Part shown: one piece after another, positions 13,955-64,000 of the stretch | How positions within the stretch are numbered: position 1 is the stretch's first letter | Layout: the number at the start of each line of letters is the position of its first letter | From: a virus | DNA length: 64,000 nt | Direction: 5' to 3' (one strand) | IMG/VR virus record: IMGVR_UViG_3300029554_000010 | Span: 8,938 to 72,937 of that record | Notes under the pieces: model-generated | The model's database searches: none | Told to the model about the DNA's origin: nothing | The model's input: only the letters and a program-made list of their open reading frames with translations | Position numbers and translations under genes: made by a program

Positions 13955-14308
13955 GTGAGATTAGTAAGTCAGAATGGGGAATTTGATGTCCCTTATGAAA
14001 TCGCAGCATTAAGCAGAACTGGAAATATCATAAGAGCATATGTGCCGATAGTTGGTGAGAAAGGAATAATTATGGCTCAGTATTTAACAGAAGAAAAAGC
14101 CATAAAAGCTATGGAAATGTTGCACAACACATATACAGGAGCATTCTTCGCACAGAATATAGAAGTTCCAGAAGATATCGAAAAGAAATTTATGAATATG
14201 GCAGCAACAAAAGGTTTTGGAATTATTAAAACTGCTATTGATAGTTCTGATATAAAATTCGAACCGGCAAACATTGTGTTTAGATTCCCGGAGGATGATG
14301 AAGTATGA
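13955..14308 (+). CDS. hypothetical protein
   Basis: RBS GAAAGGAG; 117 aa. Confidence 0.45.
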   Translation: MRLVSQNGEFDVPYEIAALSRTGNIIRAYVPIVGEKGIIMAQYLTEEKAIKAMEMLHNTYTGAFFAQNIEVPEDIEKKFMNMAATKGFGIIKTAIDSSDIKFEPANIVFRFPEDDEV

Positions 14309-14545: not shown

Positions 14546-15307
14546 ATGCGAGTAATTTCAACAGGAAGCACCAAAGGAAATTGTTACGCTTTGCAGTCAA
14601 GTACAGGCGAGATTGTTCTTCTTGACTGCGGATGCAACTACAAGAAAATCCTTAGAGGGATTGACTACCAGATAAGCAATGTTGAAGCTGTACTTCTTTC
14701 ACATGGGCACGGAGATCATACCGAAGCATTCAAAGAAATAATGGATGCAGGTATTCAGATTTACACCAATGACGAGACAGTTGAGGACATGAACATCCGA
14801 ACAGGCGAATTGATGAAAGGTGTTCCAGAAAGGCATCCATTTAGAGTTGGTTCGTTTAACGTGATTCCATTTGAATTGCCACATACAACATACGATAAGG
14901 AAGCAAATCAGCTTGTGCCTTGCTCGAACTACGGATATCTGGTGGAGCATAAGGAAATGGGGAAGCTTCTGTATATGACTGATTTTGAGTACAGTAAATA
15001 TAATTTCCAGAAAATGAGCATACATCATATGGTAATTGAATGCAACTACTGTGAAGAATTGGTGGACAGGTCAGAAGCCAACTACAGCCATAGATTGAAA
15101 GGGCATTGTTCTTTGCCAACTTGTAAGCGATTCATTAAGCAAAATCGCACAGAATCGCTTCGAACGGTAACACTTGTACATTTAAGCGGTCAGGCATCAG
15201 ATGCCCGTAAAATACAAAAAGAAATACAGGAAGTCGCAGGAGACAATGTTATGGTTCAGATTGGACGGGCTGGACTGGAAGTTAATTTGAATTTGTGCCC
15301 ATTTTGA
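14546..15307 (+). CDS. metallo-beta-lactamase-fold hydrolase
   Basis: motif LLSHGHGDH (HxHxDH) and downstream His; MBL proteins commonly accompany phage RecT modules. Confidence 0.7.
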   Translation: MRVISTGSTKGNCYALQSSTGEIVLLDCGCNYKKILRGIDYQISNVEAVLLSHGHGDHTEAFKEIMDAGIQIYTNDETVEDMNIRTGELMKGVPERHPFRVGSFNVIPFELPHTTYDKEANQLVPCSNYGYLVEHKEMGKLLYMTDFEYSKYNFQKMSIHHMVIECNYCEELVDRSEANYSHRLKGHCSLPTCKRFIKQNRTESLRTVTLVHLSGQASDARKIQKEIQEVAGDNVMVQIGRAGLEVNLNLCPF

Positions 15308-15588: not shown

Positions 15589-15704
15589 AGGAGATAAGCC
15601 ATGAACGAATTAACTGATTGTAGCAAATGTAGATTCCGTAATTGCTGTACGTTAGCATGGGATTACGGTTCACTTTACTGTAACGATTATGAGGAGGAAG
15701 ATAC

Positions 15705-27991: not shown

Positions 27992-28174
27992 GAGGTGAGC
28001 ATATGGCAATTGTTACGATTGATGGAAAAGAAATTGACATCGAACAAATTGAACTGCCAGAAGAAATTATTAAAATCATAATTGAATGCTTAGGTTGACC
28101 GCAAAAATATTGTAGTGTAAAATGTGTCGTAACATGATATGTGCGGCACATTTCTACACAAAGGAGGAATAGTC

Positions 28175-29539
28175 ATGGAATGTGTTGCGTATTTGCGTGT
28201 ATCAACAGAAAAACAGGCCGAAGAGGGAAATGGATTAGACAGTCAGAAAAGAGATATTGAAAATTATTGCAGAAAAAATCAATTGATTATATCTGATTGG
28301 TACGAGGATGATGGCTTCACAGGTTCGAATATGAATCGTCCAGCATTGCAACGCTTAATTAATGATTGCTCAAAGAAAAAATTAAAATGTGTTGTAGCGT
28401 TTAAACTAGATCGATTATCAAGAAGCATGGTCGATGGAATATACTTAATTGAACGTGTATTCATACCTAATGGGGTGGATTTTAGATGCGTGCATGATAG
28501 TGTAAGCTACGACAGCCCAATGGAGCAAGCGTACACTCAGATGATGGCAGTGTTTGCGCAACTTGACAAAAATACTATGTTGCTTAGAATGCGTGGCGGT
28601 ATGCTGGAGCGAGTGAAACAGGGATATTGGATGGGAGGTGGCAACACCCCGTATTGCTATAGATATAGCAAAGAAGACGGAATCTTAGTTCCCATACCAG
28701 AGCGCAAAGAAATGGCTTTGCGAGCTATGAATTTGTATATATCCGGTTATTCTGATGTTCGAATACAGAAATTGATAGGATTTAAAAGCGAGTTTGTTAC
28801 ACGACAGGTTCTTACCAGTCCTGTAAATATTGGCATGATTCCGTATAAAGGAAAACTATATAAGGGAAGACATGAACCAATTTTCGATATTAAAGTATTC
28901 GAATTAGCCCAGGAATTAAGAAAAACTCGTAAGCAAAGTAAAAGCTTCTGCGTTAATCACGAGAATCAGCTCTTGACGGGGCTGTGCTATTGCGGAGTGT
29001 GCGGATGCAAGATGAGATATCAGAAGTGGACTCATGGGAAGCATAAAATTTATTGCTATTCAAGGGATAACGGCATGTCGTACTTACCAAATTACAATCC
29101 GAATTGCAGCAATTCGCTTGAGTGGGCAGAAGATATTGAAAAGCAGGTTGAAGATGAGATTTTAAAGATTTCCCTCAATTTATCATCGCATAAGCCAAAA
29201 GAAAGAGAAAGCTGTCTGGACATTTTGAGTAAACAACTCCAAAAAGAGAAAACGAAGCTAAAACGTCTGTATACTCTTTATGCTGAGGGAAATGATACGG
29301 TTCTGGAGATGATAAAAGAAACGGAATCCGGCATAGATGAACTAAAAATAAAAATACAGAACGAGATGAAGAACCCGGATAACTCACAGAAGAAAGAATT
29401 TGTATACGATAATATAAAAAAGCTTGCCGATGTGTGGGAACACATTGACAAGCAAAACAAAAACCGTATATTAAAAACTATAATATCAAAAATAATTATA
29501 GTCAATGGAAATATTGAAATACAGTTAAAAAAATTTTAG
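28175..29539 (+). CDS. large serine recombinase (serine integrase type)
   Basis: N-terminal resolvase catalytic domain (AYLRVSTEKQ, DRLSRS), recombinase domain and a Cys-rich zinc ribbon (CYCGVCGCKM), plus a C-terminal coiled coil. Confidence 0.85.
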   Translation: MECVAYLRVSTEKQAEEGNGLDSQKRDIENYCRKNQLIISDWYEDDGFTGSNMNRPALQRLINDCSKKKLKCVVAFKLDRLSRSMVDGIYLIERVFIPNGVDFRCVHDSVSYDSPMEQAYTQMMAVFAQLDKNTMLLRMRGGMLERVKQGYWMGGGNTPYCYRYSKEDGILVPIPERKEMALRAMNLYISGYSDVRIQKLIGFKSEFVTRQVLTSPVNIGMIPYKGKLYKGRHEPIFDIKVFELAQELRKTRKQSKSFCVNHENQLLTGLCYCGVCGCKMRYQKWTHGKHKIYCYSRDNGMSYLPNYNPNCSNSLEWAEDIEKQVEDEILKISLNLSSHKPKERESCLDILSKQLQKEKTKLKRLYTLYAEGNDTVLEMIKETESGIDELKIKIQNEMKNPDNSQKKEFVYDNIKKLADVWEHIDKQNKNRILKTIISKIIIVNGNIEIQLKKF

Positions 29540-31316: not shown

Positions 31317-31694
31317 TTAATTATAAATACTATCAAAAGCGGGTTTGTATTCCGGATGTAACAGCACAAAGTCAACAACTTTGTTATATGCCCGGCTGCC
31401 GTCCTTCGTTTCATGATATTCTAAGTTGAAAATATCATGCAACTTTTTCACCAGCTCATAAAAAGCACAAGCTTTTTCTTTTTCTTTTCGGTCATAGACT
31501 TTTATGCACATCGCATGATAATTGCATTCTACAACAAGGCTTTTGTGTCTGGATAACTTAGACCGGCACCAATACATAAGATCATGTTCACCTATTTCAA
31601 AATCAAACACATACCCGGTAAGACCGTACATATATTTTGATTCTGTATATTTTAAGTTGTATTTTTTAGCGAAAGATATAACTGTTTTATTCAT
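31317..31694 (-). CDS. hypothetical protein
   Basis: minus-strand RBS GGAGGG before MNKTVISFAKKY. Confidence 0.45.
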   Translation of the reverse strand: MNKTVISFAKKYNLKYTESKYMYGLTGYVFDFEIGEHDLMYWCRSKLSRHKSLVVECNYHAMCIKVYDRKEKEKACAFYELVKKLHDIFNLEYHETKDGSRAYNKVVDFVLLHPEYKPAFDSIYN

Positions 31695-38873: not shown

Positions 38874-38948
38874 TCTAGGGCTATCGCCAAAAGGTAAGGT
38901 AACGGACTTTGATTCCGTCATGTGTGGGTTCGAATCCCACTAGCCCAG
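38874..38948 (+). tRNA. tRNA-like, anticodon TTG (Gln), with an atypical D-arm
   Basis: perfect anticodon stem ACGGA/TCCGT with loop CTTTGAT, T-arm GTGGG-TTCGAAT-CCCAC, acceptor AGGGCTA/TAGCCCA with an A-A pair at 1:72. Confidence 0.35.
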
Positions 38949-39182
38949 CTTGCTAGGTTGCGCATGTACCTGGCAATGGTTTATTTTACATAGACCCTCC
39001 GACGAAAACCCATCTAGCTCAACGGAGCTGATTAAAGGGGCTTCAAATGTCCCGGATGGGAATCATCGTAAAAACGATGTACTCTATTTAGCCATGACCT
39101 TTGTTGCGGCTGGTGGCAAAGAACCGCAACAGTAGAAGCAAATCAACTCAAAATCTGCAATCCGGGAGACTGCTTCTACTCA

Positions 39183-39255
39183 GGAAATTTAGTTCAGCGG
39201 TTAGAACGCCCGGCTCATAACCGGGAAGCCCTGAGTTCGAATCTCAGAATTTCCA
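39183..39255 (+). tRNA. tRNA-Met (CAT anticodon; elongator Met or Ile2-lysidine type)
   Basis: acceptor GGAAATT/AATTTCC, D-arm GTTC-AGCGGTTA-GAAC, anticodon arm CCCGG-CTCATAA-CCGGG, T-arm CTGAG-TTCGAAT-CTCAG; 3' CCA not encoded. Confidence 0.7.
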
Positions 39256-39786
39256 TTTCTTCCGTATGCTACCCATCCGTTTTATGGGCAGAAAAAACTT
39301 TCGGATGAGCGTATGTGAATCAGAATGAGCAAAGGTATGTAACGGCATAGGCTTGTGCTTGATCTGATTTCCCGTCCGATAAATGTTTCTTAGTTTCAAT
39401 AAGCCATCACAAGCGCGCATTGATGGCAGGGAGTTTTCAAGAAGCATAAAGTTAAAAGGCATAATAATATCCGAAACAACTCCGTGGAGCATACCACGGT
39501 TACCAAAAAGCCGTCAGGTTGGCAAAAATACGATAGTCCAAGTTATGAAAAATTGCCTAGTGGAAAGCATAACACGAAAAAATCATTGCTAACCCGGAAC
39601 AATCTCCGGGTTCTGGGGGAATAATACCATAAGGGGCAGAGGGCTGATTAACAGTACCAGAGCGGTTCAACTCCGCATTCTCCCATTATCCAATCTGTAA
39701 ATATTGGATATGAGGAAGCTGTCCGAGATGTAAGAAACAGTCGGCTTGTGGATTGCCGGTACAAATACGCTGAAAATCCACACAAG

Positions 39787-39856
39787 GCAGGGTAGAGAAG
39801 CGGAATCTCGCAAGGTTCATATCCTTGAGAACGGCGGTTCAAATCCGTCTCCTGCA
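39787..39856 (+). tRNA. tRNA-like, anticodon CAT, with an imperfect acceptor stem
   Basis: D-arm GAGA-AGCGGAA-TCTC, anticodon arm CAAGG-TTCATAT-CCTTG, T-arm GGCGG-TTCAAAT-CCGTC; mismatch at the top of the acceptor stem. Confidence 0.35.
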
Positions 39857-39974
39857 ATTAATTTGGTCGGAATTATGCTGTCTGTATACAGGCGGTCTAT
39901 GATTCGGCTGAATTTATCTCATGAGAAAAGGTTATTGCTTATCCTGTTGTCTGGTGTCCGGACCGAAAAGCATG

Positions 39975-40047
39975 ATGGAATGTAGATCAGTGGTAGAGCA
40001 ATGGCCTTGTAAGCTATGTGTCGCAGGTTCGATTCCTGCCTTTCCGA
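39975..40047 (+). tRNA. tRNA-like with a TGT anticodon loop and T-arm GCAGG-TTCGATT-CCTGC; acceptor stem not resolvable by eye
   Basis: D-arm-like GATCAGTGGTAGAGC, anticodon arm ATGGC-CTTGTAA-GCTAT. Confidence 0.25.
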
Positions 40048-44170: not shown

Positions 44171-45907
44171 ATGCAAAAATTCACAGAAGGCTCGCTTGAA
44201 TGGTATCGGGCAATTTTAAATCAAATCATTAATGATGATATGACAGTCTGTCAAAATCAGAAGGACTGCCTTGATTTACTTTTGAATATGAATATTGACC
44301 TTCCTTTCAAGGATAATCCAGATGCACGGAATATGGCAATGAAAGTCAGTCGGTACGCTCACAATGAAGCTGCGAAACAGGCAGCAGTTACAGGAAGTGG
44401 TTCATTTGACGATTTATACTGGCAGTATTTATTGATGGAAGCACAGAACTATCAGGTTGACAGTGGGCTTCTTTACCTTGAAAAGAACCGAATCCCGAAA
44501 GAACGATTCTATGAACCACGAAGAAATGTGTTCTTACAACATAACATCATAGGTTCACTACAAGACCTGATGGATGACAAATTAGATATATTTGCATTAA
44601 GCGTACCTCCGGGTTGTGGAAAGAGTACTCTGGAAGATTTCTTTTTATCATTGGTAGGTGGATGGTTCCCGAATGACTTTAACCTGTCTTCGGCACACAG
44701 TAGCATTCTGACACGTTCCCTTTATGATGGTGTTCTGGAAATTATCAATGATCCCGTGGAATACACGTGGCATGAGATATTCCCTAACATAGAAATTCAA
44801 GGAACAAATGCAAAGGAAACTACAGTCAATCTCGAAAGAAACGGACGATTTAAGACATGGACATTTCGTTCTATTGATGGTTCTTTGACTGGCGCCACTA
44901 GATGCAATAGATTTCTTACTGCCGATGACCTTGTGTCTGGCATTGAAGAAGCTTTGAATAAAAACCGACTTGATACCTTATGGACAAAAGTGGTAAATGA
45001 CTTGCGTTCCCGTAGACTTGAGGGATGCAAAGAGTTTTATATTGCCACCAGATGGTCAGTACATGACCCTATCGGAAAACTGCAACAACTATATGCCGGA
45101 AACCCACGGGCAAGATTTATTGCAGTGCCGGCTCTTGATGAGAACGGCAAAAGTAATTTCCTATTTACGGTAAATGGATTCTCAGAGAAATATTTCAATG
45201 ATGCTAAAGAATCCATGGATGAAATTTCTTACAACTGTCTTTATCAGCAACAGCCGGTAGAACGTGAGGGATTATTATTACCACCGGATAAATTAAAACG
45301 ATTCTTTTTCAGTAAAGAAGACGTGCCGGATGAATGCGTGGATGAATACATCATCATTCCAGATAAAGATGCAGATGCAATATGGGCGGTATGTGATACA
45401 AAAGATAAAGGAACCGACTTCGAATCATTACCGATTGCATACCAATACGGAGATAAATTTTTCTTTCCTGATGTGGTGTTTGATGACACTACAGACTATG
45501 ACATTTTGGATAGAAAGACAGCAGATATTTTGATAAGACATAACCCACATAAGATTCGTTTTGAATCAAATAATGTCGGAAACCGCGTGGCACACAATAT
45601 CCAGAAAATGATTACTGGAAAGTGCCGAGCTGAAATTGAGACAAAACCAACATCAGCAAATAAAGAAACAAAGATTCTTGTAAATTCGGACTATATAGCA
45701 AAACATTTTTATTTTCTGCATCCAAGTCAGTACAAAGCAAAGTCTGATTACGGATTATTTATGGCTAACGTAACTACGTACACCACTAGGGCAAAAGTAC
45801 CACATGATGACGGAATCGATTCTTTGGCTATGATGGCTGAGTACGTACAAAATCCATTAGGTGGTAAAGCAACGGCAATGCAGAATCCATTTTGGGGAAG
45901 GAGATAG
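44171..45907 (+). CDS. terL: terminase large subunit
   Basis: Walker A LSVPPGCGKST, ATPase and nuclease-like halves; sits upstream of the portal gene. Confidence 0.8.
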   Translation: MQKFTEGSLEWYRAILNQIINDDMTVCQNQKDCLDLLLNMNIDLPFKDNPDARNMAMKVSRYAHNEAAKQAAVTGSGSFDDLYWQYLLMEAQNYQVDSGLLYLEKNRIPKERFYEPRRNVFLQHNIIGSLQDLMDDKLDIFALSVPPGCGKSTLEDFFLSLVGGWFPNDFNLSSAHSSILTRSLYDGVLEIINDPVEYTWHEIFPNIEIQGTNAKETTVNLERNGRFKTWTFRSIDGSLTGATRCNRFLTADDLVSGIEEALNKNRLDTLWTKVVNDLRSRRLEGCKEFYIATRWSVHDPIGKLQQLYAGNPRARFIAVPALDENGKSNFLFTVNGFSEKYFNDAKESMDEISYNCLYQQQPVEREGLLLPPDKLKRFFFSKEDVPDECVDEYIIIPDKDADAIWAVCDTKDKGTDFESLPIAYQYGDKFFFPDVVFDDTTDYDILDRKTADILIRHNPHKIRFESNNVGNRVAHNIQKMITGKCRAEIETKPTSANKETKILVNSDYIAKHFYFLHPSQYKAKSDYGLFMANVTTYTTRAKVPHDDGIDSLAMMAEYVQNPLGGKATAMQNPFWGRR

Positions 45908-45908
45908 T

Positions 45909-46331
45909 ATGGATATAAAGGAATATTTGAATCAAATTCAACGATACGAAAAAGTTATAAATAACAAACTGGAAGAAATTGAGCACTTAAAATTGCTTGC
46001 CACCAGTATTAGTGCTTCGGCATATGGCATTGAACGCGTTCAGACTTCAGGAAGCCAAGATAAAATAGGCGATACCATAGCAAAACTGGTGGACGCACAG
46101 CGTGAACTGGCTGATGATGTGGTAGAACTTATAGAGAAAAAACAGAAACTTATAGATGTTATAGAATCCGTGAAAAATCCCCAATATTATGATTTTTTGT
46201 ACAAACGATACATAGAGGGAAAAAAGCTAACTGTTATTGCAGATGAAATGGAATACAGCGAAGAATATATTAAACAATTCCATGGAAGAGCCGTGAATTA
46301 CGTAAAAGAAATGCTTAATTTTAAAAGTTAG
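45909..46331 (+). CDS. sigma-70 region-4-like HTH protein, a putative late transcription regulator
   Basis: C-terminus YDFLYKRYIEGKKLTVIADEMEYSEEYIKQFHGRAV resembles sigma region 4. Confidence 0.5.
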   Translation: MDIKEYLNQIQRYEKVINNKLEEIEHLKLLATSISASAYGIERVQTSGSQDKIGDTIAKLVDAQRELADDVVELIEKKQKLIDVIESVKNPQYYDFLYKRYIEGKKLTVIADEMEYSEEYIKQFHGRAVNYVKEMLNFKS

Positions 46332-46354
46332 CACCTTTTCTTACTGAATATAAC
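46332..46354 (+). promoter_or_regulatory. conserved 23-nt box CACCTTTTCTTACTGAATATAAC, copy 1
   Basis: identical 23-mer at 56358-56380; both copies begin right after a stop codon and precede a terminator-like hairpin and a structural gene. Confidence 0.5.
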
Positions 46355-46392
46355 TTTTCAGTTATGTATAATATATGATGAAAATGTATGAA

Positions 46393-46420
46393 GCATCGGG
46401 TAAAAACTCGGTGCTTTTTT
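46393..46420 (+). terminator. hairpin GCATCGGG-TAAAAA-CTCGGTGC plus TTTTTT
   Basis: 8-bp stem including two G-U pairs, then a T-run, 25 nt before the portal RBS. Confidence 0.5.
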
Positions 46421-46445
46421 CATGCCTAAAAAGGAGGTACGGGCA

Positions 46446-47924
46446 GTGGCAAGAAATAAGATGAATTATATTGACCTCTGCCATGGTGAATTTGGTAGAA
46501 AGGTAGCATATACCGGAGTAAGTAAAATTACACCAGAAAATGTACTGAAAGTGATTGCTGATACAATCGGCGTTCACAATAGAAATAGGACAATAATTGA
46601 TTATCTGTATAGATACTACAAAGGCGATCAGCCAGTTCTTTACAGAGAAAAACTTGTGCGTCCTGAAATTAACAATCGAGTGTGCGAGAATCACGCACTT
46701 GAAGTTGTACGCTTCAAAGCATCTCAGACTTATGGCGAACCAATTCAGTTTGTTTGTAAGAAAAAGAACGCTACAAAAGAAAGCAACGCACAGGTAGACC
46801 TGTTCAATGATTACCTGGATGAAGCAAATGCAGAAGCCAGAAACATTGAGTTAGGAACATATCAAAGTGCAGTAGGAACTGCATACAAGTGCATTCTTCG
46901 TGAAGAAGATTGGACAGCAGATTCAGACATTCCGCCATTTAGAATTTTTATTCCGTATCCTGGAGATTGCTATATTGTTTATTCTAAAGGCACCGGAAAA
47001 CCACTGATGTCGGTTCAGATATTAAAAGACGAAGATGACCAACAGTATTATCAGTGCTATTCAAAAAACCAGTATTTCATTGTGCAGAATGGAAAGATTA
47101 AAAAAGCCGGTCTGAATGGCTTCGGAAACATTCCAATTATTGAATATCCAAACAATCATGACAGATTATCTGATGTTGAAATAGCAATCACAATGTTCGA
47201 TACAATCAATAACATGCAGTCAAACAGAATGGATGGAGTTGAACAGTTTGTTCAAGCCTTTATGAAATTCAAGAACTGTGAGATTGACGAGAACGAATTC
47301 CTCAAGATGGTAAAACTTGGCGCTATATCTGTTAAAGATACCAGCAATGGATGCCAGTCGGATGTTGAACTGATGACTGCTGAACTGAATCAGTCAGAAA
47401 GCCAAGTTGCTAAAGATGATATTTACAGTAATATGCTGATTGTTGAAGGAATGCCAGATAGACAACAAAACACTGGCGGAGATACCGGTCAAGCCGTATA
47501 TCTCCGCAATGGTTGGGACTTTGCAGAGCGTAGAGCCAAATTGGATGAACCTTTTATCCGTGAAGCTGAGAAAGCATCTGCCAGAATAATACTTAACATT
47601 ATAAGAAATACTACTGGTGATATAAAACTTTCGACAAGAGATTTTGATGTAAAAATTACCAGAAACCCAACGGATAACATGCTTGTTAAAGCACAGGCCC
47701 TCGATTATCTGGTTAAGAATAAAATACATCCGCTCATTGCACTTATTACTTGTGGATTATTTAGTGATCCGCAGAAAGTATACGAAATGAGTTTTCCGTA
47801 CATGCAGTCATTGTATAAGAATCCAGAAGAGGAAACGCAGAAAGCACAAGAATTGATTGACAATTTTAGCCAGAAATCAGTTCAAAATCAATCAGCAATA
47901 ATTTCTTCCACTGACGAAGAATAA
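46446..47924 (+). CDS. portal protein
   Basis: about 490 aa, positioned after the terminase; the start is GTG 46446 or ATG 46461 after RBS AAAGGAGG. Confidence 0.75.
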   Translation: MARNKMNYIDLCHGEFGRKVAYTGVSKITPENVLKVIADTIGVHNRNRTIIDYLYRYYKGDQPVLYREKLVRPEINNRVCENHALEVVRFKASQTYGEPIQFVCKKKNATKESNAQVDLFNDYLDEANAEARNIELGTYQSAVGTAYKCILREEDWTADSDIPPFRIFIPYPGDCYIVYSKGTGKPLMSVQILKDEDDQQYYQCYSKNQYFIVQNGKIKKAGLNGFGNIPIIEYPNNHDRLSDVEIAITMFDTINNMQSNRMDGVEQFVQAFMKFKNCEIDENEFLKMVKLGAISVKDTSNGCQSDVELMTAELNQSESQVAKDDIYSNMLIVEGMPDRQQNTGGDTGQAVYLRNGWDFAERRAKLDEPFIREAEKASARIILNIIRNTTGDIKLSTRDFDVKITRNPTDNMLVKAQALDYLVKNKIHPLIALITCGLFSDPQKVYEMSFPYMQSLYKNPEEETQKAQELIDNFSQKSVQNQSAIISSTDEE

Positions 47925-50795: not shown

Positions 50796-51107
50796 ATGGG
50801 ATGTGAACATGAGTGCTTTAACAATCACCGCTTCGAAGAAATTGAAAAAAGTATTCATGATATGCAGGAAAAGCAGTCTGAAAGGCACAAAGAATTTTAT
50901 TCAAGAATTAATAAGCTCGAACAGAAGACCGCCCTGTATAGCAATGACTTAGATCATATTAAAGAAACAGTCGATGAAATGAACAACAATTTAAAAATCC
51001 TCATGGCAGTCCCTGGCAAACGTTATGACACCATTATTGTATGCATTATAACGGCAGTCGTGGGAGCAGTTGTAGGATTTATGTTGAGCGGTGTATTTCC
51101 TATGTAA
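50796..51107 (+). CDS. XhlA-like protein (coiled coil plus C-terminal TM helix)
   Basis: central coiled coil and the C-terminal hydrophobic helix IIVCIITAVVGAVVGFMLSGVF. Confidence 0.5.
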   Translation: MGCEHECFNNHRFEEIEKSIHDMQEKQSERHKEFYSRINKLEQKTALYSNDLDHIKETVDEMNNNLKILMAVPGKRYDTIIVCIITAVVGAVVGFMLSGVFPM

Positions 51108-51146: not shown

Positions 51147-51401
51147 ATGAATTATGCAGATTTTTCAGAAGATGAAAGAAAATTTTACTTGCAAGAAGCA
51201 GGTTTTAATTCACGCGAAGAAAAATTATTTCGATTACGGGCTTATGGCGAAAAGACATTATGGGAAGCATCTGAATTAATGGAGTACAGCCCCAGAACCA
51301 TAGACCGAATCAATAAAAAAATAAAACAGAAAATTACCAAAGTTGCCCCGATGTACATTCGGGGCTTTTCTTTGCATAATGGCGGAAATGTGGCGAAATA
51401 G
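51147..51401 (+). CDS. sigma-70 region-4-like HTH protein
   Basis: RLRAYGEKTLWEASELMEYSPRTIDRINKKIKQKI. Confidence 0.5.
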   Translation: MNYADFSEDERKFYLQEAGFNSREEKLFRLRAYGEKTLWEASELMEYSPRTIDRINKKIKQKITKVAPMYIRGFSLHNGGNVAK

Positions 51402-51556
51402 TGACGTTCAAATACAGTGTTCCTTTCTATATAATATAATCATAGGAGAAAACGTAATGATTATATTAAGAAACCCTTACGAGGGTATATGGGAAAAGCA
51501 TCGTTCTATAGATGATATGGATATGATTCTTGAATCCCGGACAGGAGGAACAGATT

Positions 51557-55447: not shown

Positions 55448-55834
55448 ATGAGAGGATTAAAAAGACAGAAACAGACCGTGTACTGGTCAAGAGTAACCGA
55501 AACACTTGAGGGAATAGATACCGTACCGACATACAGTCAACCGCAAAGCTTTAAGTTTTCTGTATCATCTACCGCGGGAACACCAGAAGAATTGTCCGCT
55601 GGTATTGTTCCGGATTACGACAGATACATTACTTCCTTTGACCGTTCTTTCCATCCGCAAGAGGGAGATGTATTTTGGATTGATACTGTGCCACAGGTTG
55701 ACGCACTGGGAAATCTGGTTCTGGAAGATGGTATTCCTACAACGCCGCCAGATTACCGTTTGAAGAAAATCCTTGATACGCAAAGAGGAAATCTGGCTAG
55801 ATATGGAATTAAAAAGATAGGTGCAGAAGAATGA
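55448..55834 (+). CDS. head-tail joining/adaptor-like protein
   Basis: size and position only. Confidence 0.4.
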   Translation: MRGLKRQKQTVYWSRVTETLEGIDTVPTYSQPQSFKFSVSSTAGTPEELSAGIVPDYDRYITSFDRSFHPQEGDVFWIDTVPQVDALGNLVLEDGIPTTPPDYRLKKILDTQRGNLARYGIKKIGAEE

Positions 55835-56349
55835 ACGGACGAGTAATCAAATGCAATCTGAGCCAAAAATCTATTGGAAACGCAATCAAAGAATTGAAAG
55901 CATATCAAAACAGTCTTCGCGATAAAAATGAAGTATTTCTTAAAAGGCTTTGCGAATTGGGAATTCCTGTCATAGACGAAAATATTATGTTGGCACAAGG
56001 AGATTCTGACAGGAACCACAATACCTACATCAAAATCAACAGGTTCGGAAATTACGCGCAGGCAACTCTTGTGTGCGAAGGCTCTGGACTTTTGTTCATA
56101 GAATTCGGTGCTGGTATTTCGTACAACACTCCGGCAGGAACAAGCCCCCATCCAAAAGGAGAAGAATTCGGATATACCATTGGTTCCTACGGACAGGGCA
56201 AAGGAAAAAACGAATCGTGGGTATATGTGGCAGATTCTGGCGAATGGGTGCGTTCTTACGGTACAGAGGCTACAATGCCCGTTTACAAAGCGAGCGTAGA
56301 AATTATGCAGAATATCCGTAGAATCGCAAAAGAAGTATTTTCTGCATAA
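55831..56349 (+). CDS. hypothetical structural protein
   Basis: 172 aa, coupled to the preceding gene. Confidence 0.4.
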   Translation: MNGRVIKCNLSQKSIGNAIKELKAYQNSLRDKNEVFLKRLCELGIPVIDENIMLAQGDSDRNHNTYIKINRFGNYAQATLVCEGSGLLFIEFGAGISYNTPAGTSPHPKGEEFGYTIGSYGQGKGKNESWVYVADSGEWVRSYGTEATMPVYKASVEIMQNIRRIAKEVFSA

Positions 56350-56357
56350 AAACATAT

Positions 56358-56380
56358 CACCTTTTCTTACTGAATATAAC
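56358..56380 (+). promoter_or_regulatory. conserved 23-nt box CACCTTTTCTTACTGAATATAAC, copy 2
   Basis: identical to 46332-46354. Confidence 0.5.
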
Positions 56381-56411
56381 GTCTGTTTTATGTATACTGT
56401 AAAATATAAAA

Positions 56412-56440
56412 GCATCTACCGGAATGGTGGGTGCTTTTTC
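56412..56440 (+). terminator. hairpin GCATCTACC-GGAAT-GGTGGGTGC plus TTTTT
   Basis: 9-bp stem with G-U pairs, followed by a T-run. Confidence 0.5.
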
Positions 56441-56887: not shown

Positions 56888-57181
56888 ATGGAACAGATTA
56901 TGAATTACGTGAAACCGGAACTTCTTATTGTCGCGGTTGTACTGTACTTTATCGGAATGGGAATCAAAAAATCCGAAGTCATACCGGACAAATATATCCC
57001 GGCAATCCTTGGTGCTTTAGGCATTCTGATTTGTGGAATTTATGTTATTGCTACATGCGCTATATCTGGCGCACAGGAAATCGCAATGGCAATTTTTACC
57101 GCAATCACACAGGGAATCCTCGTTGCAGGACTTAGTAATTATGTAAATCAGATTGTAAAGCAGGCAAGCAAAGAAGACTAG
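56888..57181 (+). CDS. holin-like small membrane protein (2-3 TM segments)
   Basis: LLIVAVVLYFIGMGI, ILGALGILICGIYVIATCAI, AIFTAITQGILVAGL and a charged C-terminus. Confidence 0.45.
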   Translation: MEQIMNYVKPELLIVAVVLYFIGMGIKKSEVIPDKYIPAILGALGILICGIYVIATCAISGAQEIAMAIFTAITQGILVAGLSNYVNQIVKQASKED

Positions 57182-58665: not shown

Positions 58666-60240
58666 ATGGCCGATAATACCATAGATACCCTCAATATACA
58701 AATAGAGAGTAGCACAACTCAGGCGGTGCGGTCTATTAATAACCTTGTAAAAAAATTAGATACATTAAACACTGCTTTTGGAAATCTTGACATAAGCCGG
58801 TTAAATAATTTTTCCAATTCTTTAAAAAGTTTAGGTAGCGTGAATTTTAAAGCAAATGGATTGAATGCGGCTATAAACGCTATCAATCGTCTTGGAAAAT
58901 CTGATTTCAGTCAGTTTGATACAGGGAAATTAGGCGAAATTCTTACCGAGATGCAGAAACTTGATGCTATTCCAGATGTTTCTCCGAGCGTTAGCCGGTT
59001 CACAACCGCTATAGCTAAACTTGCCGGTACAGGACAGTATATCGGCAATGTATCAAAGGAACTTCCGAATCTTGCGACAGGTTTAAATAATGCGGCTACT
59101 AAATTAGGCTCTATGAGCGAAGTATCAGCATCCACCAATGCTTTTATTACTTCTCTTGGAAAATTAGCTAGTGCAGGAGATAAAACCGGAAAGACTGCAA
59201 GTCAATTATCGACTCTCGCGCAAGAGGTTTTAAAGTTTTTTGACGTAATGAAAAGCGTACCAGATATCAGTTCGAGCACAATAAGAATGACAGAAGCTCT
59301 TGCAGTATTAGCATCGTCTGGAAGCAAAGTAGGGCGTGCCACAAGTAGCGTTTCGAATTCATTTAACACGCTTTCTTCGTTAGGTTCAAAAGCAAGTACT
59401 GTAATTAATGGGCTGACAAATGCTTTTCAAAAATTTGCTTCAAAAGCTATTTCTTTAGGCGGAAAAGCCGTATCTGCAATCGCAGGTATTGGAAATGCAT
59501 CTTCTGAAGCTGGTGAAAAAATAAGAAGATTGTCAAATCCTCTGAGTTCGGTAACGAATAAGTTGAGTGCTCTTTACGCCAAAGGTTTTCTCGCAAAAAG
59601 AGCATTAGATGTTCTGGCATCGCCAGTAGAATCCGCAATGAACTATGTAGAGACTCTGAACTATTTCAACTCTGCGTTCAATCAGGTGGCAGAAGGAATC
59701 AACACTAATGAATGGAAGAAAAGTGGTATAAAATCTGCTGAAGCATATGCAAATTCATTCCAAGAAAGAGCAAAACAGCTTTCACAGAAACTGACAGGAT
59801 TCGAAATTTCAGATACTGGCGAACTGACTAGAACCAATACCGCCAGTCTTGGACTTGACCCAGAAAAGACAATGCAGTATCAGGCAACATTTGCGCAGAT
59901 GGCATCATCTATGGGAGATACATCAGAGACTGCATTAAAGTTGTCTAATGTACTCACTATGATTGGCGCAGACCTTGCATCTGTAAGAAATATGAACTTT
60001 GAAGATGTATGGCAGGACATGGCATCTGGCTTGACCGGTATGAGCCGCGCTATGGATAAGTACGGCATCAATATCCGTAATGCCAACATGCAACAGGAAC
60101 TATATAATCTTGGAATTAATACCAGCATATCGAATTTGTCTCAGGCAGATAAAACGATTCTAAGAACGATTATCTTGCTGAACAACTCTAAGTATGCGTG
60201 GGCTGATTTGTCAGAAACGATAAATAGGTCAGTAGCGTGA
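58666..60240 (+). CDS. tape measure protein, N-terminal segment
   Basis: long alpha-helical A/S/L/N-rich protein in the canonical tape-measure position. Confidence 0.6.
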   Translation: MADNTIDTLNIQIESSTTQAVRSINNLVKKLDTLNTAFGNLDISRLNNFSNSLKSLGSVNFKANGLNAAINAINRLGKSDFSQFDTGKLGEILTEMQKLDAIPDVSPSVSRFTTAIAKLAGTGQYIGNVSKELPNLATGLNNAATKLGSMSEVSASTNAFITSLGKLASAGDKTGKTASQLSTLAQEVLKFFDVMKSVPDISSSTIRMTEALAVLASSGSKVGRATSSVSNSFNTLSSLGSKASTVINGLTNAFQKFASKAISLGGKAVSAIAGIGNASSEAGEKIRRLSNPLSSVTNKLSALYAKGFLAKRALDVLASPVESAMNYVETLNYFNSAFNQVAEGINTNEWKKSGIKSAEAYANSFQERAKQLSQKLTGFEISDTGELTRTNTASLGLDPEKTMQYQATFAQMASSMGDTSETALKLSNVLTMIGADLASVRNMNFEDVWQDMASGLTGMSRAMDKYGINIRNANMQQELYNLGINTSISNLSQADKTILRTIILLNNSKYAWADLSETINRSVA

Positions 60241-60491: not shown

Positions 60492-63400
60492 ATGCATTGT
60501 AATAATGCAGAAGTGAGGATAAAAAGCCTTACGATAACAAATCGAAATCAACCGGCAAATCAGATTCGTATGCTTCAATCTAACTTTGCATCCCTTGGTA
60601 GAACAATAGGTTCCTTATTCATTCCTATACTGCAAACAGTACTTCCATATATCAATGCAATAGTAATCGCAATACAAAGAATGTTCGCTTATATTGCAAA
60701 ACTTCTTGGAATCAAACTGTCTAACTTTGTATCATCTACTGGCGGTATTTCTGTAGATACAAGTAACATTGCGGATGATATGGATAATGCCAGTGATTCT
60801 ATTGATACTGCAAATAAGAATGCCAAAAAACTCAAAAAAACATTGTCAGTTCTTTCATTTGATGAACTGAATCAGCTTAATGACAATTCTGATTCTGGTA
60901 GTACAAGTAATCCATCTTCTGGCTCTGGAAAAGGCGGTTTGGGGCATATCGGAGCACTTGATGCAGCTTTGGACGATGCTTTGTCTGCATATCAAAAAGC
61001 ATGGGACGAAGCATTCAAGAAAATGTCCAACAGGGCAAATGAAATGGCAGATGCCATTGTAAATGCCTTTAAGAGAAAAGACTGGAAAGGTCTTGGAAAA
61101 ATCATGGCTGATGGCATTAACTGGGGAATGCAAAAGCTTTATGATTTCATTAACTGGAATAACGTAGGCCCTTACATCACTAAATTCACCAGTGCGTTCA
61201 CCCAGACTTTCAACAGCCTTGTTGATAATATCAACTGGGATTTGATGGGACGTACCGTTGGAGCTGGTATTAATACAATAGTTAATACAGCCAATCAGTT
61301 ACTTGAGGGAACGAATTTCAAAAACCTTGGCAAGAAATTTGCAGAAGGCATCATGGGGCTTTCTCGTGAAGTTGACTGGACTAATCTTGGAAATTTGATT
61401 GGTAATAACTTTATGAAGAGCTGGCACATTTTCTATGGTTTTGTTTCAAATCTTAAATATGACGAAATCGGAATTAATATCGGAAATGCCCTTAATGGTA
61501 TATTTGAGAAAATTAATTTCACAGAAATTGCTAGTGCATTAACAACTGGAATAAACGGCGCATTTACAGCACTTGCAAGCTTCACAGCAACATTCAATTG
61601 GGATGACTTCACTAAAAATCTTGGCGATGGGATTTCCAAATTTATATCCGATATGCACTGGAAAGAGAATGGAAAGGCTCTCGGAGACTTTCTTAGCCAT
61701 TTATGCGATGCCCTGATAGATGCATTAACTCCTAATACATTCAGAAAGCTTGGAGAAGGCATTGGCGATTTTATCGGGCAACTTCCATGGGGAAAATTAC
61801 TTGCAACAGCCGCTAAATTGCTCATAAGCGGATTTGGCGAAGCAATGTCTGGACTGTGGGAAAGCGGATTGTCCGGAAAGATCACAGCCGGTCTTACAAC
61901 AGCTTTTGTTGCTGTAAAAATCGCAGATATCACAGGAATCGGAACACTTGTCGGAAAACTTATCGGTCATATCGGTGATAAAATCATGGCAAAAGAAAGT
62001 GCTGATATTATTGCCGAAAAATTATCCAGTATTCTTGGACAAGGAACATCCGAAGCAACACAAGTTCTTGACGGACTGGGCGAAGCGGCAGGAACATCTG
62101 GTGGGAAATTCGCTTCACTGGCAAAAGAGTTGGGACCATTGGTAGGTACAGCGGGATTAATTGTTGGTGTAGGTGCAGCGGCGGTTTATGCAACTTCTAA
62201 AATTGCCGGTATGGTAGAAAGTATGCAAGGCGGCAATGGAGTAGGAACCACATTTGGCAATACCATGGATAATTTCATTCAGACATTACAACAACGTGGC
62301 GACATAATATCTGGTTCTGCAACGGAAATTTGGAACTTGAAAGAATCTCTCGAAAAAGAAGGAATGACAGCAGAAGAGCAATCTGCGGCAACTCAGAAGA
62401 TAATTGACAAACTCGGAGAAATGGGAGTGACATCAGATCAGGCAGAACAGGCATTTTCTTCTTTGTATCAGCAAGGACTTATCACGGATGATATGTTTGA
62501 TATTCTATCAGAATCTATCAAAACATTAGGTGATAAATCAACGAATATGGCAGGTAGTCTCAATCTTAGCAAATACTCTGTTGATGAGTTGGCAGAAGTC
62601 CTTCCGAAGTTAACTACTCAGTTGGGATTAAATTCTGACCAACAGACTCAACTTAATACCGCATTATACGATATGCCTAATGCAAGTGGTACAGCTCAGG
62701 GAGCTTATGAAAACATCATGGCAACCGCAAAAGAAATGGGATTGAATACGGAATCTGTTGCAAAGATTTTTGCAGAAACATTCCCCGATGCAGTTCAGAC
62801 CGCAAAAGAATCTGTGTCTAAGCAAACATCAGAAATTAGATGGAATACCACCAGAGATTTCAATGATGCGGCAGGTGCGGTAACAAAAGCTACTGGTCAG
62901 ATGAAGAGTACTGCCATGAGCGATTATGAGGCAATTCATTCAAAAGCCACCGAATCTTCTCAGGGAGTCGCTACGGCAACTGTAACGCAATGGGGAAGTT
63001 CTGCAAGAGAGGTTTCCAAGAACCTTGATTCAATGAAGCAAGCAGCCAACTTGAAACTGGGAGAAATGCAGAAAACTGTAGAATCCCATTTTTCATCACA
63101 GTATAATACTATGACAAATAAATGGGAAAAAGCAGCAGAGCGTATCACCGGAAGGGGGCAGATTGTTGATTCTTTAGATTCTACACTTAGCAGAAAAGTT
63201 CCGTCTATGTCAAAATATTTCGATCAACTTTCAGGTAATATTTCAAAGAGTCTGAGTAGATTACATAGTGTCGGAGCAAATGCCGCAACCAGCCTGTATA
63301 ATGGAATGAAATCCGTGAGAATGCCTACGCTTTCGTATTATATTTCTCAGTGGAAAACACATAGCCTTGGGAACGGTGGTACCAGTTCAACCCCTGTCTA

Positions 63401-63752
63401 TAGTCCGAACTGGTACGCTAAAGGTGGTTTGTTCAAAAATGCATCTGTCATTGGTGTAGGCGAAGCAGGACAGGAAGCCGTTCTTCCTTTGGAAAATCGT
63501 AAAGCCATGAAATCCATTGCCGACAGTATCATGTCTGGATATGACGGCAACATGGGACTTACGAAAGATGAGATCATGGAAGCTGTTGAGCGTGGTGTAG
63601 TTACTGCTTTGATGAACAATGGTGGCTTTGGCGGTTCTTCGCCGGAGTACATCATGAACAGCATCAAAGTGAACGAGCGTGAACTGGCGCGAATTGTCAC
63701 AAAGGCTCAGAACAACACAGATTACCGCATGAATCCGTCCCCGGCATATTGA
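60492..63752 (+). CDS. tape measure protein, C-terminal segment
   Basis: 1086 aa; begins NQPANQIRMLQSNFASLGRTIGSLFIPIL, with long G/A/S/T-rich helical repeats. Confidence 0.7.
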   Translation: MHCNNAEVRIKSLTITNRNQPANQIRMLQSNFASLGRTIGSLFIPILQTVLPYINAIVIAIQRMFAYIAKLLGIKLSNFVSSTGGISVDTSNIADDMDNASDSIDTANKNAKKLKKTLSVLSFDELNQLNDNSDSGSTSNPSSGSGKGGLGHIGALDAALDDALSAYQKAWDEAFKKMSNRANEMADAIVNAFKRKDWKGLGKIMADGINWGMQKLYDFINWNNVGPYITKFTSAFTQTFNSLVDNINWDLMGRTVGAGINTIVNTANQLLEGTNFKNLGKKFAEGIMGLSREVDWTNLGNLIGNNFMKSWHIFYGFVSNLKYDEIGINIGNALNGIFEKINFTEIASALTTGINGAFTALASFTATFNWDDFTKNLGDGISKFISDMHWKENGKALGDFLSHLCDALIDALTPNTFRKLGEGIGDFIGQLPWGKLLATAAKLLISGFGEAMSGLWESGLSGKITAGLTTAFVAVKIADITGIGTLVGKLIGHIGDKIMAKESADIIAEKLSSILGQGTSEATQVLDGLGEAAGTSGGKFASLAKELGPLVGTAGLIVGVGAAAVYATSKIAGMVESMQGGNGVGTTFGNTMDNFIQTLQQRGDIISGSATEIWNLKESLEKEGMTAEEQSAATQKIIDKLGEMGVTSDQAEQAFSSLYQQGLITDDMFDILSESIKTLGDKSTNMAGSLNLSKYSVDELAEVLPKLTTQLGLNSDQQTQLNTALYDMPNASGTAQGAYENIMATAKEMGLNTESVAKIFAETFPDAVQTAKESVSKQTSEIRWNTTRDFNDAAGAVTKATGQMKSTAMSDYEAIHSKATESSQGVATATVTQWGSSAREVSKNLDSMKQAANLKLGEMQKTVESHFSSQYNTMTNKWEKAAERITGRGQIVDSLDSTLSRKVPSMSKYFDQLSGNISKSLSRLHSVGANAATSLYNGMKSVRMPTLSYYISQWKTHSLGNGGTSSTPVYSPNWYAKGGLFKNASVIGVGEAGQEAVLPLENRKAMKSIADSIMSGYDGNMGLTKDEIMEAVERGVVTALMNNGGFGGSSPEYIMNSIKVNERELARIVTKAQNNTDYRMNPSPAY

Positions 63753-63870: not shown

Positions 63871-64000
63871 TTTGGTAAAACCAACAGGCTAACCCGACGG
63901 GGGACAAGTGCAATTCCATGATGCACCTGCCTGTTGTTTTTATAAATCATGGATCTGTGGCTACAAGGCAGTCACACATTAACGACATGGAGGTTATCTA

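Follow-up and report, generated by a model that had tools for sequence, protein, structure and literature searches.

Two predicted Ltr-dependent late promoters, each with a terminator-like leader hairpin, in a phage genome from IMG/VR

The DNA considered here, referred to as the window, is a stretch of 64,000 nucleotides of a human-gut phage, taken from the IMG/VR virus record IMGVR_UViG_3300029554_000010 (positions 8,938 to 72,937 of that record). It contains two related intergenic cassettes, site 1 before the portal gene and site 2 before the tail-module genes, which on the basis of their sequences and those of their relatives are read as two late promoters dependent upon the regulator Ltr, each with an intrinsic terminator in its leader. 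The probability of this reading is placed at roughly 0.65. The gene upstream of site 1 encodes a DUF1492/LtrB regulator, and the repeated box at the head of each cassette is phased by 10 bp, lies at an invariant 12 nt from a near-consensus -10 hexamer, and co-varies with the regulator from lineage to lineage. These observations bear out the late promoter or activator site that had been proposed in an initial annotation of the DNA.

Results

Architecture of the cassettes

The 23-nt sequence CACCTTTTCTTACTGAATATAAC occurs on the + strand at 46332-46354 and again, exactly, at 56358-56380, just as was originally recorded. No further copy with three or fewer mismatches exists anywhere in the window, and 100 dinucleotide-preserving shuffles gave 0 matches; the exact duplication of the 23-mer is thus not due to chance. 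A third cassette was likewise sought in the window, both at up to three mismatches and by core, hairpin, and model scans, and none was found. Among the matches listed, the contigs of lineage A, to which the window belongs, display just the two site types. Copy 1 follows directly upon a stop codon (TAG, 46329-46331), as had been claimed for both copies, whereas copy 2 starts 8 nt past its TAA (56347-56349).

An alignment of the two intergenic regions is a mosaic in which conserved blocks are separated by diverged spacers. In order, the blocks are the box, the segment TTATGTATA, the motif AAGCATC followed at a distance by GGTGCTTTTT, which together form the base of a hairpin whose interior differs between the sites but is paired in each, the motif YATGC, and an A-rich stretch leading to the Shine-Dalgarno (SD) sequence and the start codon. 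The segment TTATGTATA, noted earlier as a similarity downstream of the box, is part of the -10 region, and each -10 hexamer is positioned 35 nt from the start of its box. Also as first described, both hairpins contain G·U pairs and are followed by T6 (site 1) or T5 (site 2) and then by the SD sequence. The coordinates of these features are provided in Table 1.

Read in register, the window box is AGCAC-N5-CTTAC-N5-ATAAC. A table of 13 cassettes from nine lineages places the last two pentamers at -27 to -23 and -17 to -13 from the first base of the -10 hexamer in all 13. The hexamer itself is TATAAT (eight cassettes), TATACT (three), or TAAAAT (two), and it always begins 12 nt past the last repeat. 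Transcription is predicted to start near 46379-46380 at site 1 and near 56405-56406 at site 2. At the -35 position, 12 of the 13 cassettes have CTGAAT, CTGAAA (a 4/6 match to TTGACA), or CTGAAC, and lineage L248 has CAAAAA. The -35 is called weak because the hexamer is a poor match and is not conserved in all lineages. A test for an alternative sigma factor with its own promoter type was negative: the resemblance of Ltr to region 4 is limited to its C-terminal part, and the -10 hexamer, TATAAT, is of the sigma-A type.

The RNA of the box is not more structured than its shuffles (folding z = -0.40 and +0.69). The helical phasing, the fixed spacing to the -10, and the co-variation with the regulator point to the box being a DNA operator of a promoter, namely the predicted binding site of Ltr. 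Additional -10-like elements, resembling TGTAAAAT or TAAAGT, are located between the -10 and the hairpin in many lineages, although not in L425, L428, or L432; these leaders are AT-rich and chance matches are likely. Such an element, 1-7 nt before the hairpin, had prompted the idea of a start inside the hairpin, which would yield late RNA without the 5' arm. The idea was abandoned given the loss of the element in those three lineages and the likelihood of chance matches.

The regulator

Ltr belongs to the DUF1492 family (Table 1). The initial annotation had described both Ltr and the product of an open reading frame (ORF) at 51147-51401 (+) as sigma region-4-like. The similarity is present in both, but at sub-threshold scores only (TIGR02937, 22.1 and 26.7 bits, the latter for the ORF, versus a cut-off of 42.9), and nothing ties the ORF to the box. 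Its candidacy as an Ltr paralogue was dismissed, there being no similarity by BLASTP. The ORF specifies 84 amino acids and carries a GC-rich terminator-like hairpin in its 3' end (51345-51365); a promoter-like site, TTCAAA-17-TATAAT, is located just past it at 51407-51435 (+).

Profile comparisons of Ltr with the Q families gave sub-threshold matches (PF06530, 17.3 bits against a cut-off of 26, E 0.0045; phrog_79, E 4e-5) that cover only the sigma-4-like helix-turn-helix (HTH). An AlphaFold2 model, built from a 10-sequence alignment with a mean predicted local distance difference test score of 81, begins with a long hairpin of helices (residues 3-39 and 46-86) and ends in a domain of three helices. 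A Foldseek search of the PDB with this model returned mostly extracytoplasmic function (ECF) sigma factors and isolated sigma region 4, with root-mean-square deviations of 2-4.5 Å over 55-74 residues and a best E of 0.04, none of the matches being significant. As no Q protein was among them, homology between Ltr and Q was not adopted on structural grounds. A profile search of the PDB sequences with Ltr found nothing relevant.

Conservation among related phages

Relatives were gathered from IMG/VR by way of the regulator, DNA patterns, and the gene downstream of site 2. Substitutions among 62 close relatives are located in the stretch separating the box from the -10, in the hairpin loop, and ahead of the SD sequence; none affects the box core, the -10, or the stem. 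A motif scan of relatives, named in the initial annotation as a check, found the architecture kept in nine IMG/VR lineages, with a pentamer sequence that changes with the regulator. Indeed, the regulators of the distant lineages are 44-64% identical to the window Ltr (or 47-52% by tblastn), and with them the architecture is retained and the box is changed. The box reads GATAC-N5-TATAC-N5-GATAC in lineage B (including GenBank MT838118), three copies of GATAC in lineage C, and CATAC-N5-CATAC in lineages D, L248, L249, L258, and L261. In genomes from which both sites were recovered, the two share the same lineage-specific pentamers, as can be seen in contig _083517 (loci L260 and L407), in contig _073620 (L298 and L409), and in lineages A and B. 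In lineage L414, the promoter and the hairpin of site 2 are absent together. Site 2 of lineage B has two tandem terminator-like hairpins in its leader. In that leader (L100/L075/L116), the tail genes are preceded by an additional C-rich hairpin (CCCCCCTGCTTTAGCTGTGGGG) and by a further terminator-like hairpin (GCGTTTACCTTTCGGGGTAGGCGC plus T6). A prophage-host scan of genome contigs gave three distant matches only, in Faecalibacterium and Ruminococcaceae metagenome-assembled genomes (MAGs), which assign no host.

A tblastn search of GenBank phages yielded 34 records with 24-44% identity to Ltr. Seventeen ltr loci, including those of Heliusvirales gut phages, Streptococcus Javan prophages, Gardnerella vB_Gva_AB1, Erysipelothrix phi1605, three MAG contigs, and 80alpha, were scanned over the 260 nt past the ltr stop, and a terminator-like hairpin on the same strand was found in 14 of the 17. 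Eight loci have TATAAT or TATACT in the first 140 nt together with a conserved GC(C/T)...GGGC hairpin; in these the hairpin begins 9-25 nt past the hexamer and the SD sequence follows. A tally of the whole succession, from ltr stop and TATAAT over 18-27 nt to a strong hairpin with T-run and the SD sequence, likewise came to 14 of the 17 loci. Many of the distant loci have in common the hairpin GCCTTGnGGGAGnAATCCCnCAGGGC, a T4-6 tract, and CTATGCCC, with double changes at 6 of 12 pairs. A covariance model constructed from nine distant sequences only ranks the window sites first in the 64 kb, with 32.5 bits (E 1e-7) and 26.6 bits (E 7e-6). The next matches are ordinary terminators, and thus much of the model score is a generic terminator signal; homology between the window hairpins and the distant ones is suggestive rather than proven.

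The Ruminococcus phage NatCom_3870 (L433), whose regulator is 34% identical to the window Ltr over residues 1-132 (tblastn), has a second cassette before TerL at 15641-15694 (36.5 bits by the distant-locus model), and so a pair of cassettes per genome is not unique to the window phage. This second hairpin, AGCATCGGTTAGAAATAATCGGTGCT plus TTTCTTATGCCC, is near-identical to that of site 1 in the window and has TATAAT 6 nt upstream. The likeness suggests either exchange or deep conservation of the cassette.

The leader hairpin

The distance from the -10 to the hairpin is 13-20 nt in the window, or 10-23 nt with the other lineages included, the latter corresponding to about +3 to +16. Overall, the onset of the hairpin is placed only about 3-19 nt past the predicted start. 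Folded with their flanks, the two sites have minimum free energies of -18.9 kcal/mol (z = -5.2) for site 1 and -17.6 kcal/mol (z = -5.3) for site 2. Each combines a 9-bp GC-containing stem with a loop of 4-5 nt and a U-tract directly after it, the features of an intrinsic terminator, and termination is predicted here. The helix covaries. In a set of 18 distinct sequences covering both sites and all lineages, 98.3% of the cells of the 10-pair helix are paired, versus a shuffle mean of 86.7% (0/500 as good) and 30-59% for slid partners, and double-sided changes are present at three pairs (19 cells). The U·G at the fourth pair and a G·U further in are conserved, which fits an RNA of the + strand rather than its complement. 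Across the lineages, the stems have 8-10 bp and folding free energies (dG) of -10 to -14 kcal/mol, the loop is often of the GNRA type, and T5-6 always follows.

The initial annotation had offered a terminator/antiterminator switch as its second possibility. That proposal stands insofar as the hairpin is terminator-like and conserved with covariation; a switch in the riboswitch sense was rejected given the position of the hairpin, the unstructured box RNA, and the lack of a conserved alternative pairing. With the hairpin so near the start, no upstream RNA is available for an antiterminator, and control of read-through would need a protein or RNA polymerase itself. An Rfam search gave no family at its gathering score, the sub-threshold matches being small RNA (sRNA) and leader models that carry terminators. 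One of these, a sub-threshold match of a distant locus to SSRC10, was dismissed: it is a Streptococcus chromosomal sRNA located beside a calcium transporter gene.

The motif YATGC(C) lies 1-3 nt past the T-run in most lineages and in remote DUF1492 phages of Streptococcus and Gardnerella (loci L417-L419, L425, L428, and L431), and it is absent from lineage B. It follows only 1 of about 28 terminator-like sites elsewhere in the window and is thus not a general terminator tail in this phage. Nor does CATGCC serve as a start codon or upstream ORF; although it is in frame in the window, the frame is lost in L248/L261 and NatCom_3870, and an early stop follows it at site 2. No co-varying partner was found for YATGC(C), and the pairing of CAUGC with an upstream GUAUG, as seen in the fold of site 1, has no co-variation support among the variants.

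Genomic context

The 64-kb window has a low GC content (about 38%), and nearly all of its genes are encoded on the + strand. The ltr gene starts 1 nt past the TerL stop. A terminator scan of the + strand gave zero terminator-like hairpins from 34.2 kb to site 1, which makes ltr the last gene of a ~12-kb unit ending at the site 1 hairpin. It precedes the portal and head genes, yet terL sits upstream of it. Between 46 and 58 kb there are six terminator-like hairpins, five from the terminator scan (site 1, 47948, 51345, 54366, and site 2) and one from a consensus scan (57230). The portal gene is followed by genes for head decoration and the major capsid protein. Its start is likely the GTG at 46446, the ATG at 46422 being out of frame with the start in lineages L248/L261. 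The description of the gene after site 2 as a tail-region gene was approximately right: it has no family match, and after it are located a Hol44-type holin-like gene (56888-57181), the major tail gene (57253), and genes for chaperones and the tape measure. Two ORFs on the minus strand that cross the sites, 46362-46694 and 55753-56415, are considered spurious; synonymous third-position changes between lineages indicate that the + strand is the coding one upstream of site 2.

Table 1. Features of sites 1 and 2 and of the adjoining genes.
Feature	Position	Strand	Remarks
SPFH protein, TerL, and ltr genes	upstream of site 1; TerL 44171-45907, ltr 45909-46331	+	
ltr	45909-46331	+	140 aa; DUF1492 (LtrB-type) late transcriptional regulator; PF07374 28.8 bits (cut-off 21.5); phrog_36 "transcriptional regulator", E 2e-20
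Site 1 box	46330-46354	+	pentamers AGCAC (46330-34), CTTAC (46340-44), ATAAC (46350-54); 10-bp phase; about -49 to -25
Site 1 -35-position hexamer, CTGAAT	46344-46349	+	between the two proximal repeats; 17-bp spacing to -10; 3/6 to TTGACA
Site 1 -10, TATAAT	46367-46372	+	TG at 46365-66; invariant in the 62 close relatives
Site 1 hairpin	46393-46414	+	9 bp including U46396·G46411 and G46399·U46408; loop 46402-05; hairpin dG -11.5 kcal/mol
Site 1 T6 tract	46415-46420	+	completes intrinsic-terminator-like signal
CATGCC	46421-46426	+	directly after site 1 T-run
SPP1-type portal gene	SD GGAGG 46433-37; GTG start 46446, through 47924	+	PF05133 237 bits; predicted first gene served by site 1
Site 2 box	56356-56380	+	pentamers ATCAC/CTTAC/ATAAC; 8 nt past stop of ORF 55831-56349
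Site 2 -10, TATACT	56393-56398	+	35 nt from box start, as at site 1
Site 2 hairpin	56412-56434	+	9 bp with U·G pairs; loop GGAAU; hairpin dG -12.8 kcal/mol
Site 2 T5 tract, then CTATGC	56435-39, then 56440-45	+	
Gene after site 2	SD GGTGG 56455-59; ATG 56468, end 56869	+	133 aa; no family match

Other features of the region are as follows. Four tRNA genes (38877-40047, +) are contained within the long terminator-free unit that ends with ltr, and tRNA genes are also found in or after the ltr control region of related systems, namely L185, phiFL2A (tRNA-Arg, 14629-14703), and phiRM10 (tRNA-Asn). The Hol44-family gene (+; PF16079, 99 bits) and an XhlA-like gene annotated "hemolysin" (50796-51107, +; phrog_937) both lie within the structural block and not in a terminal lysis cassette. 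Two ORFs separated by a gap of ~250 nt (58666-60240 and 60492-63752, +) share the tape-measure-like protein between them, and each matches phrog_28918 and phrog_1535. Directly 3' of the tape-measure ORF is an int-alpA RNA (63882-63952, +; Rfam RF02996, 52.2 bits against a gathering score of 35.8), the terminal hairpin of which was also detected by the terminator scan (63895-63936). Finally, the gene-poor segment 30300-34300, located just after a serine recombinase gene (28139-29539), contains + strand terminator-like hairpins at 31408, 32751, 33931, and 34173, and the GC skew changes there. A boundary between modules, or else a lysogeny/early switch, may be located in this segment.

Discussion

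On the basis of these observations the following mechanism is proposed. Ltr would be produced from an upstream transcription unit of roughly 12 kb, which lacks terminators and in which ltr comes last. Its sigma-region-4-like HTH would then bind the 10-bp-phased pentamers that flank the weak -35, and the bound regulator would help the host sigma-A RNA polymerase to use the near-consensus -10 (TATAAT or TATACT), in a class II or MotA-like geometry. Transcription would begin about 7 nt past the -10, near 46379 and 56405, and within 7-14 nt the polymerase would meet the 9-bp hairpin and U5-6. At site 1 these lie a short way ahead of the ribosome-binding site of the portal gene, and at site 2 ahead of that of the tail-module genes. 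The hairpin certainly faces polymerases arriving from the upstream unit, and those started within the cassette would face it as well. By blocking read-through from the preceding operon, the terminator would make the head and tail genes dependent upon Ltr. Polymerases from the Ltr-bound promoter may cross it because it is leaky, given a very strong promoter. A more economical alternative is that Ltr remains on the polymerase or alters it in a lambda-Q-like manner. Note that the promoter precedes the terminator at both sites in all of the lineages, and in the remote phages too.

Among the late transcriptional regulators of Gram-positive phages, DUF1492 corresponds to family III, LtrB (PMC3753634). 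Each of RinA, ArpU, LtrB, and LtrC is both required and sufficient for the expression of terS, and they activate late operons via short direct repeats immediately distal to their own genes (PMC3753634, PMC3152322, PMC13123087). The window cassettes appear to belong functionally with these Ltr-dependent late promoters (RinA, ArpU, LtrA, LtrB/DUF1492, LtrC, and P23 of Phi13), as described in Ferrer 2011, Quiles-Puchalt 2013, and, for P23, in 2026. Alike are the gene for a ~15 kDa regulator directly upstream, the cognate-specific repeats right after its stop, the sigma-A-type -10, a terminator in the same intergenic region, and the control of morphogenesis and lysis genes. They differ in the position of the repeats, which is about -49 to -25 in the window, overlapping the -35, as compared to -107 to -42 in Phi13 and >155 bp upstream in 80alpha. 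The window phage has two cassettes 10 kb apart, whereas one late promoter per phage has been proposed in the Ltr literature, including a single one for 80alpha, and ltr is located between terL and portal rather than before terS. The terminator of the published systems was inferred from absent Pcad read-through across the intergenic region that holds the repeats (PMC3753634). That of the window lies clearly downstream of the predicted -10 and is of a sequence type conserved in remote phages; a leader terminator downstream of the promoter is not described in the Ltr literature. The cassettes thus seem to be of a known kind, and new are their duplication, an operator overlapping the -35, and the conserved and previously undescribed leader terminator.

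Two published systems were reread in this light. In 80alpha, the rinA stop is followed by two copies of TGGCAGT, TAAAAT 9 nt later, a leader of ~85 nt, the hairpin GGGTTGGCTGATTATAGCCAATCC plus T6, and the published start, a G located 24 nt before terS; the gap of >155 bp between the RinA site and this mapped start is unexplained (PMC3152322). In phiFL2A (L436), the order is the arpU stop, three copies of TTGGCGG (14031-14059), TGcTAATAT (14078-86), the tRNA-Arg, the published "+1" G14705, a hairpin of -13.4 kcal/mol plus T5 (14764-14788), the SD sequence, and the terS ATG at 14823. The ArpU-dependent 5' end at G14705, 118 bp before terS, came from rapid amplification of cDNA ends (RACE) without 5'-triphosphate discrimination (PMC3753634). 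Since the RACE was of this type and G14705 lies 2-4 nt beyond the tRNA-Arg, it is probably a product of tRNA processing. Whatever the origin of this 5' end, the ArpU-dependent RNA crosses the terminator-like hairpin before terS.

Similarities to other phage systems are more partial. With the lambdoid Q/PR'/tR' module the window has in common a regulator gene that is last in the preceding operon, a DNA site located within the late promoter, an intrinsic terminator ahead of the first late gene, and more terminators in the late block. The order of regulator gene, late promoter, intrinsic terminator, and first late gene is indeed that of a Q module. It differs in that the window regulator is without detectable Q homology, the -35 is weak, a second cassette lies 10 kb downstream, a pause element is at most a candidate, and the terminator is about 15-45 nt from the start versus 194 nt in lambda. 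The MotA/AsiA middle promoters of T4 and class II activators likewise employ an activator box that replaces or overlaps the -35 and keep a consensus sigma-70/sigma-A -10; the window has no known AsiA-like partner, contains phased direct repeats rather than a single MotA box, and has a regulator with a sigma-4-like HTH. Alt of TP901-1, as cited in PMC13123087, is a phage late activator of P-late acting on imperfect direct repeats (-76 to -32) upstream of terS. It is of an unrelated protein family, and a leader terminator is not reported for it. The T4 PeSL elements are also short, repeated composites of promoter and stem-loop in intergenic phage DNA (PMC4122927). In these the stem-loop is upstream of the promoter, whereas in all cassettes described here it is downstream of the -10; moreover, they are early sigma-70 promoters, present in many copies in hyperplastic regions and proposed to drive recombination.

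Several points weigh against the mechanism proposed above. The three pentamers of lineage A have just the final AC in common, and the direct repeats become clear only via the relatives. For a canonical extended -10, the TG is one base too near the hexamer. The covariance model from the distant loci also gives 23.9 and 22.6 bits to ordinary terminators (33923 and 54359) that follow genes and have no promoter before them, so hairpins of this type are not limited to Ltr promoters. To have a terminator behind its own promoter is a waste if nothing overrides it, and the overriding factor is a candidate only. The binding of Ltr to the box, the start sites, termination at the hairpin, and the way in which the terminator is overcome are all deduced here from sequence. 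With regard to the last of these, Q-like antitermination may be the main control: the promoter would fire without Ltr to give a terminated RNA of ~40 nt, and Ltr at the repeats would load onto the early elongation complex and render it resistant to the leader and downstream terminators. This is a sharper form of the final step of the Ltr-dependent mechanism and is contained within it, and it is regarded as a less probable but real possibility. The layout of lambda Q/PR'/tR' is matched, with an order shared by more than 12 lineages and by remote phages, and there is no room for an RNA antiterminator. The two leader terminators at site 2 of lineage B, the four additional hairpins inside the late block, and the weak profile matches of Ltr to PF06530 and phrog_79 are in agreement with it. 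In published reporters, Pcad read-through was blocked without Ltr and expression was high with Ltr (PMC3753634), and the only strong terminator-like hairpin found in phiFL2A lies downstream of the mapped 5' end. On the other hand, the Q-family match is below threshold and confined to the HTH, no Q protein was retrieved by Foldseek, and the weak -35, especially the CAAAAA of L248, favors activator dependence. In addition, processive antitermination would make a second loading site 10 kb downstream needless, the 80alpha start maps after the terminator (PMC3152322), and -10-like pause elements, although found in several lineages, are missing from others.

The placement of that 80alpha start leads to a different order, in which the hairpin ends the upstream operon, the true late start lies past the T-run near YATGCC, Ltr acts from about 70-90 bp upstream, and TATAAT is not the late promoter. 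By RNA ligase-mediated RACE, the RinA-dependent 5'-triphosphate end of 80alpha and phi11 is 23-24 nt before terS, downstream of the terminator-like hairpin and >155 bp from the RinA site (PMC3152322). The succession of binding site, terminator, and start is thus documented in one relative within the super-family, and it might conceivably hold in the window, where the conserved YATGCC comes exactly after the T-run. It is nevertheless considered improbable. Only 12-15 nt separate the T-run from the SD sequence, the place upstream of YATGCC is occupied by the GC-rich 3' arm of the hairpin and so offers nothing -10-like, the TATAAT is conserved in all lineages at a fixed spacing from the repeats, and the phiFL2A 5' end is upstream of its hairpin. 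Quite unlikely is a role for the box as RNA in read-through transcripts, be it a nut/put-like recruitment site or a 3'-untranslated element, rather than as a DNA operator; the box would form the 3' end of the transcript from the upstream gene, with the terminator after it, but its RNA is no more structured than the shuffles, it has no Rfam match, and pentamers in 10-bp phase at a fixed distance from the -10 follow the logic of the DNA helix. Least probable of all is a repeat without regulatory function, either a recombination or mobile cassette, as proposed for the T4 PeSLs, or a recent functionless duplication. The presence/absence polymorphism of site 2 (L414) and the near-identical hairpin in the remote NatCom_3870, which hints at cassette exchange, would fit such a repeat. 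The conservation, however, is a mosaic in which box, -10, stem base, and T-run are kept while the spacers and the stem interior diverge with compensation, and the cassettes are constantly placed before late gene blocks and after ltr; the order within PeSLs is, furthermore, the opposite one (PMC4122927).

Were Ltr to act on termination as well as on initiation, the DUF1492/LtrB proteins, and perhaps the entire RinA/ArpU/Ltr super-family, could be promoter-loaded antiterminators of the lambda-Q type in Gram-positive phages rather than plain activators, a generalization that is put forward as speculative. If it is true, the hairpin, U-run, and YAUGCC after the late -10 would constitute a regulated terminator, and the short leader RNA would be the "off" product. 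Two oddities would also be explained, namely the RinA site located >155 bp from the mapped start with a terminator between them, and the phiFL2A "start" 2-4 nt past a tRNA and upstream of a terminator. Late-gene switches set the timing of DNA packaging and host lysis in temperate phages and, in Gram-positive bacteria, govern virulence-island transduction as well, and the Ltr super-family is widespread. The window contains a compact and doubly present version of such a switch, with the predicted binding site, -10, terminator, and ribosome site in about 100 nt, and the same order of elements extends from human-gut Clostridia phages to those of Streptococcus, Erysipelothrix, and Gardnerella. So minimal a template makes it testable whether Ltr acts on initiation only or on termination too. 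The succession of ltr stop, phased repeats, TATAAT, hairpin plus T-run, YATGCC, and SD sequence may, in addition, serve as an annotation signature for the starts of late operons in uncultured gut phages.

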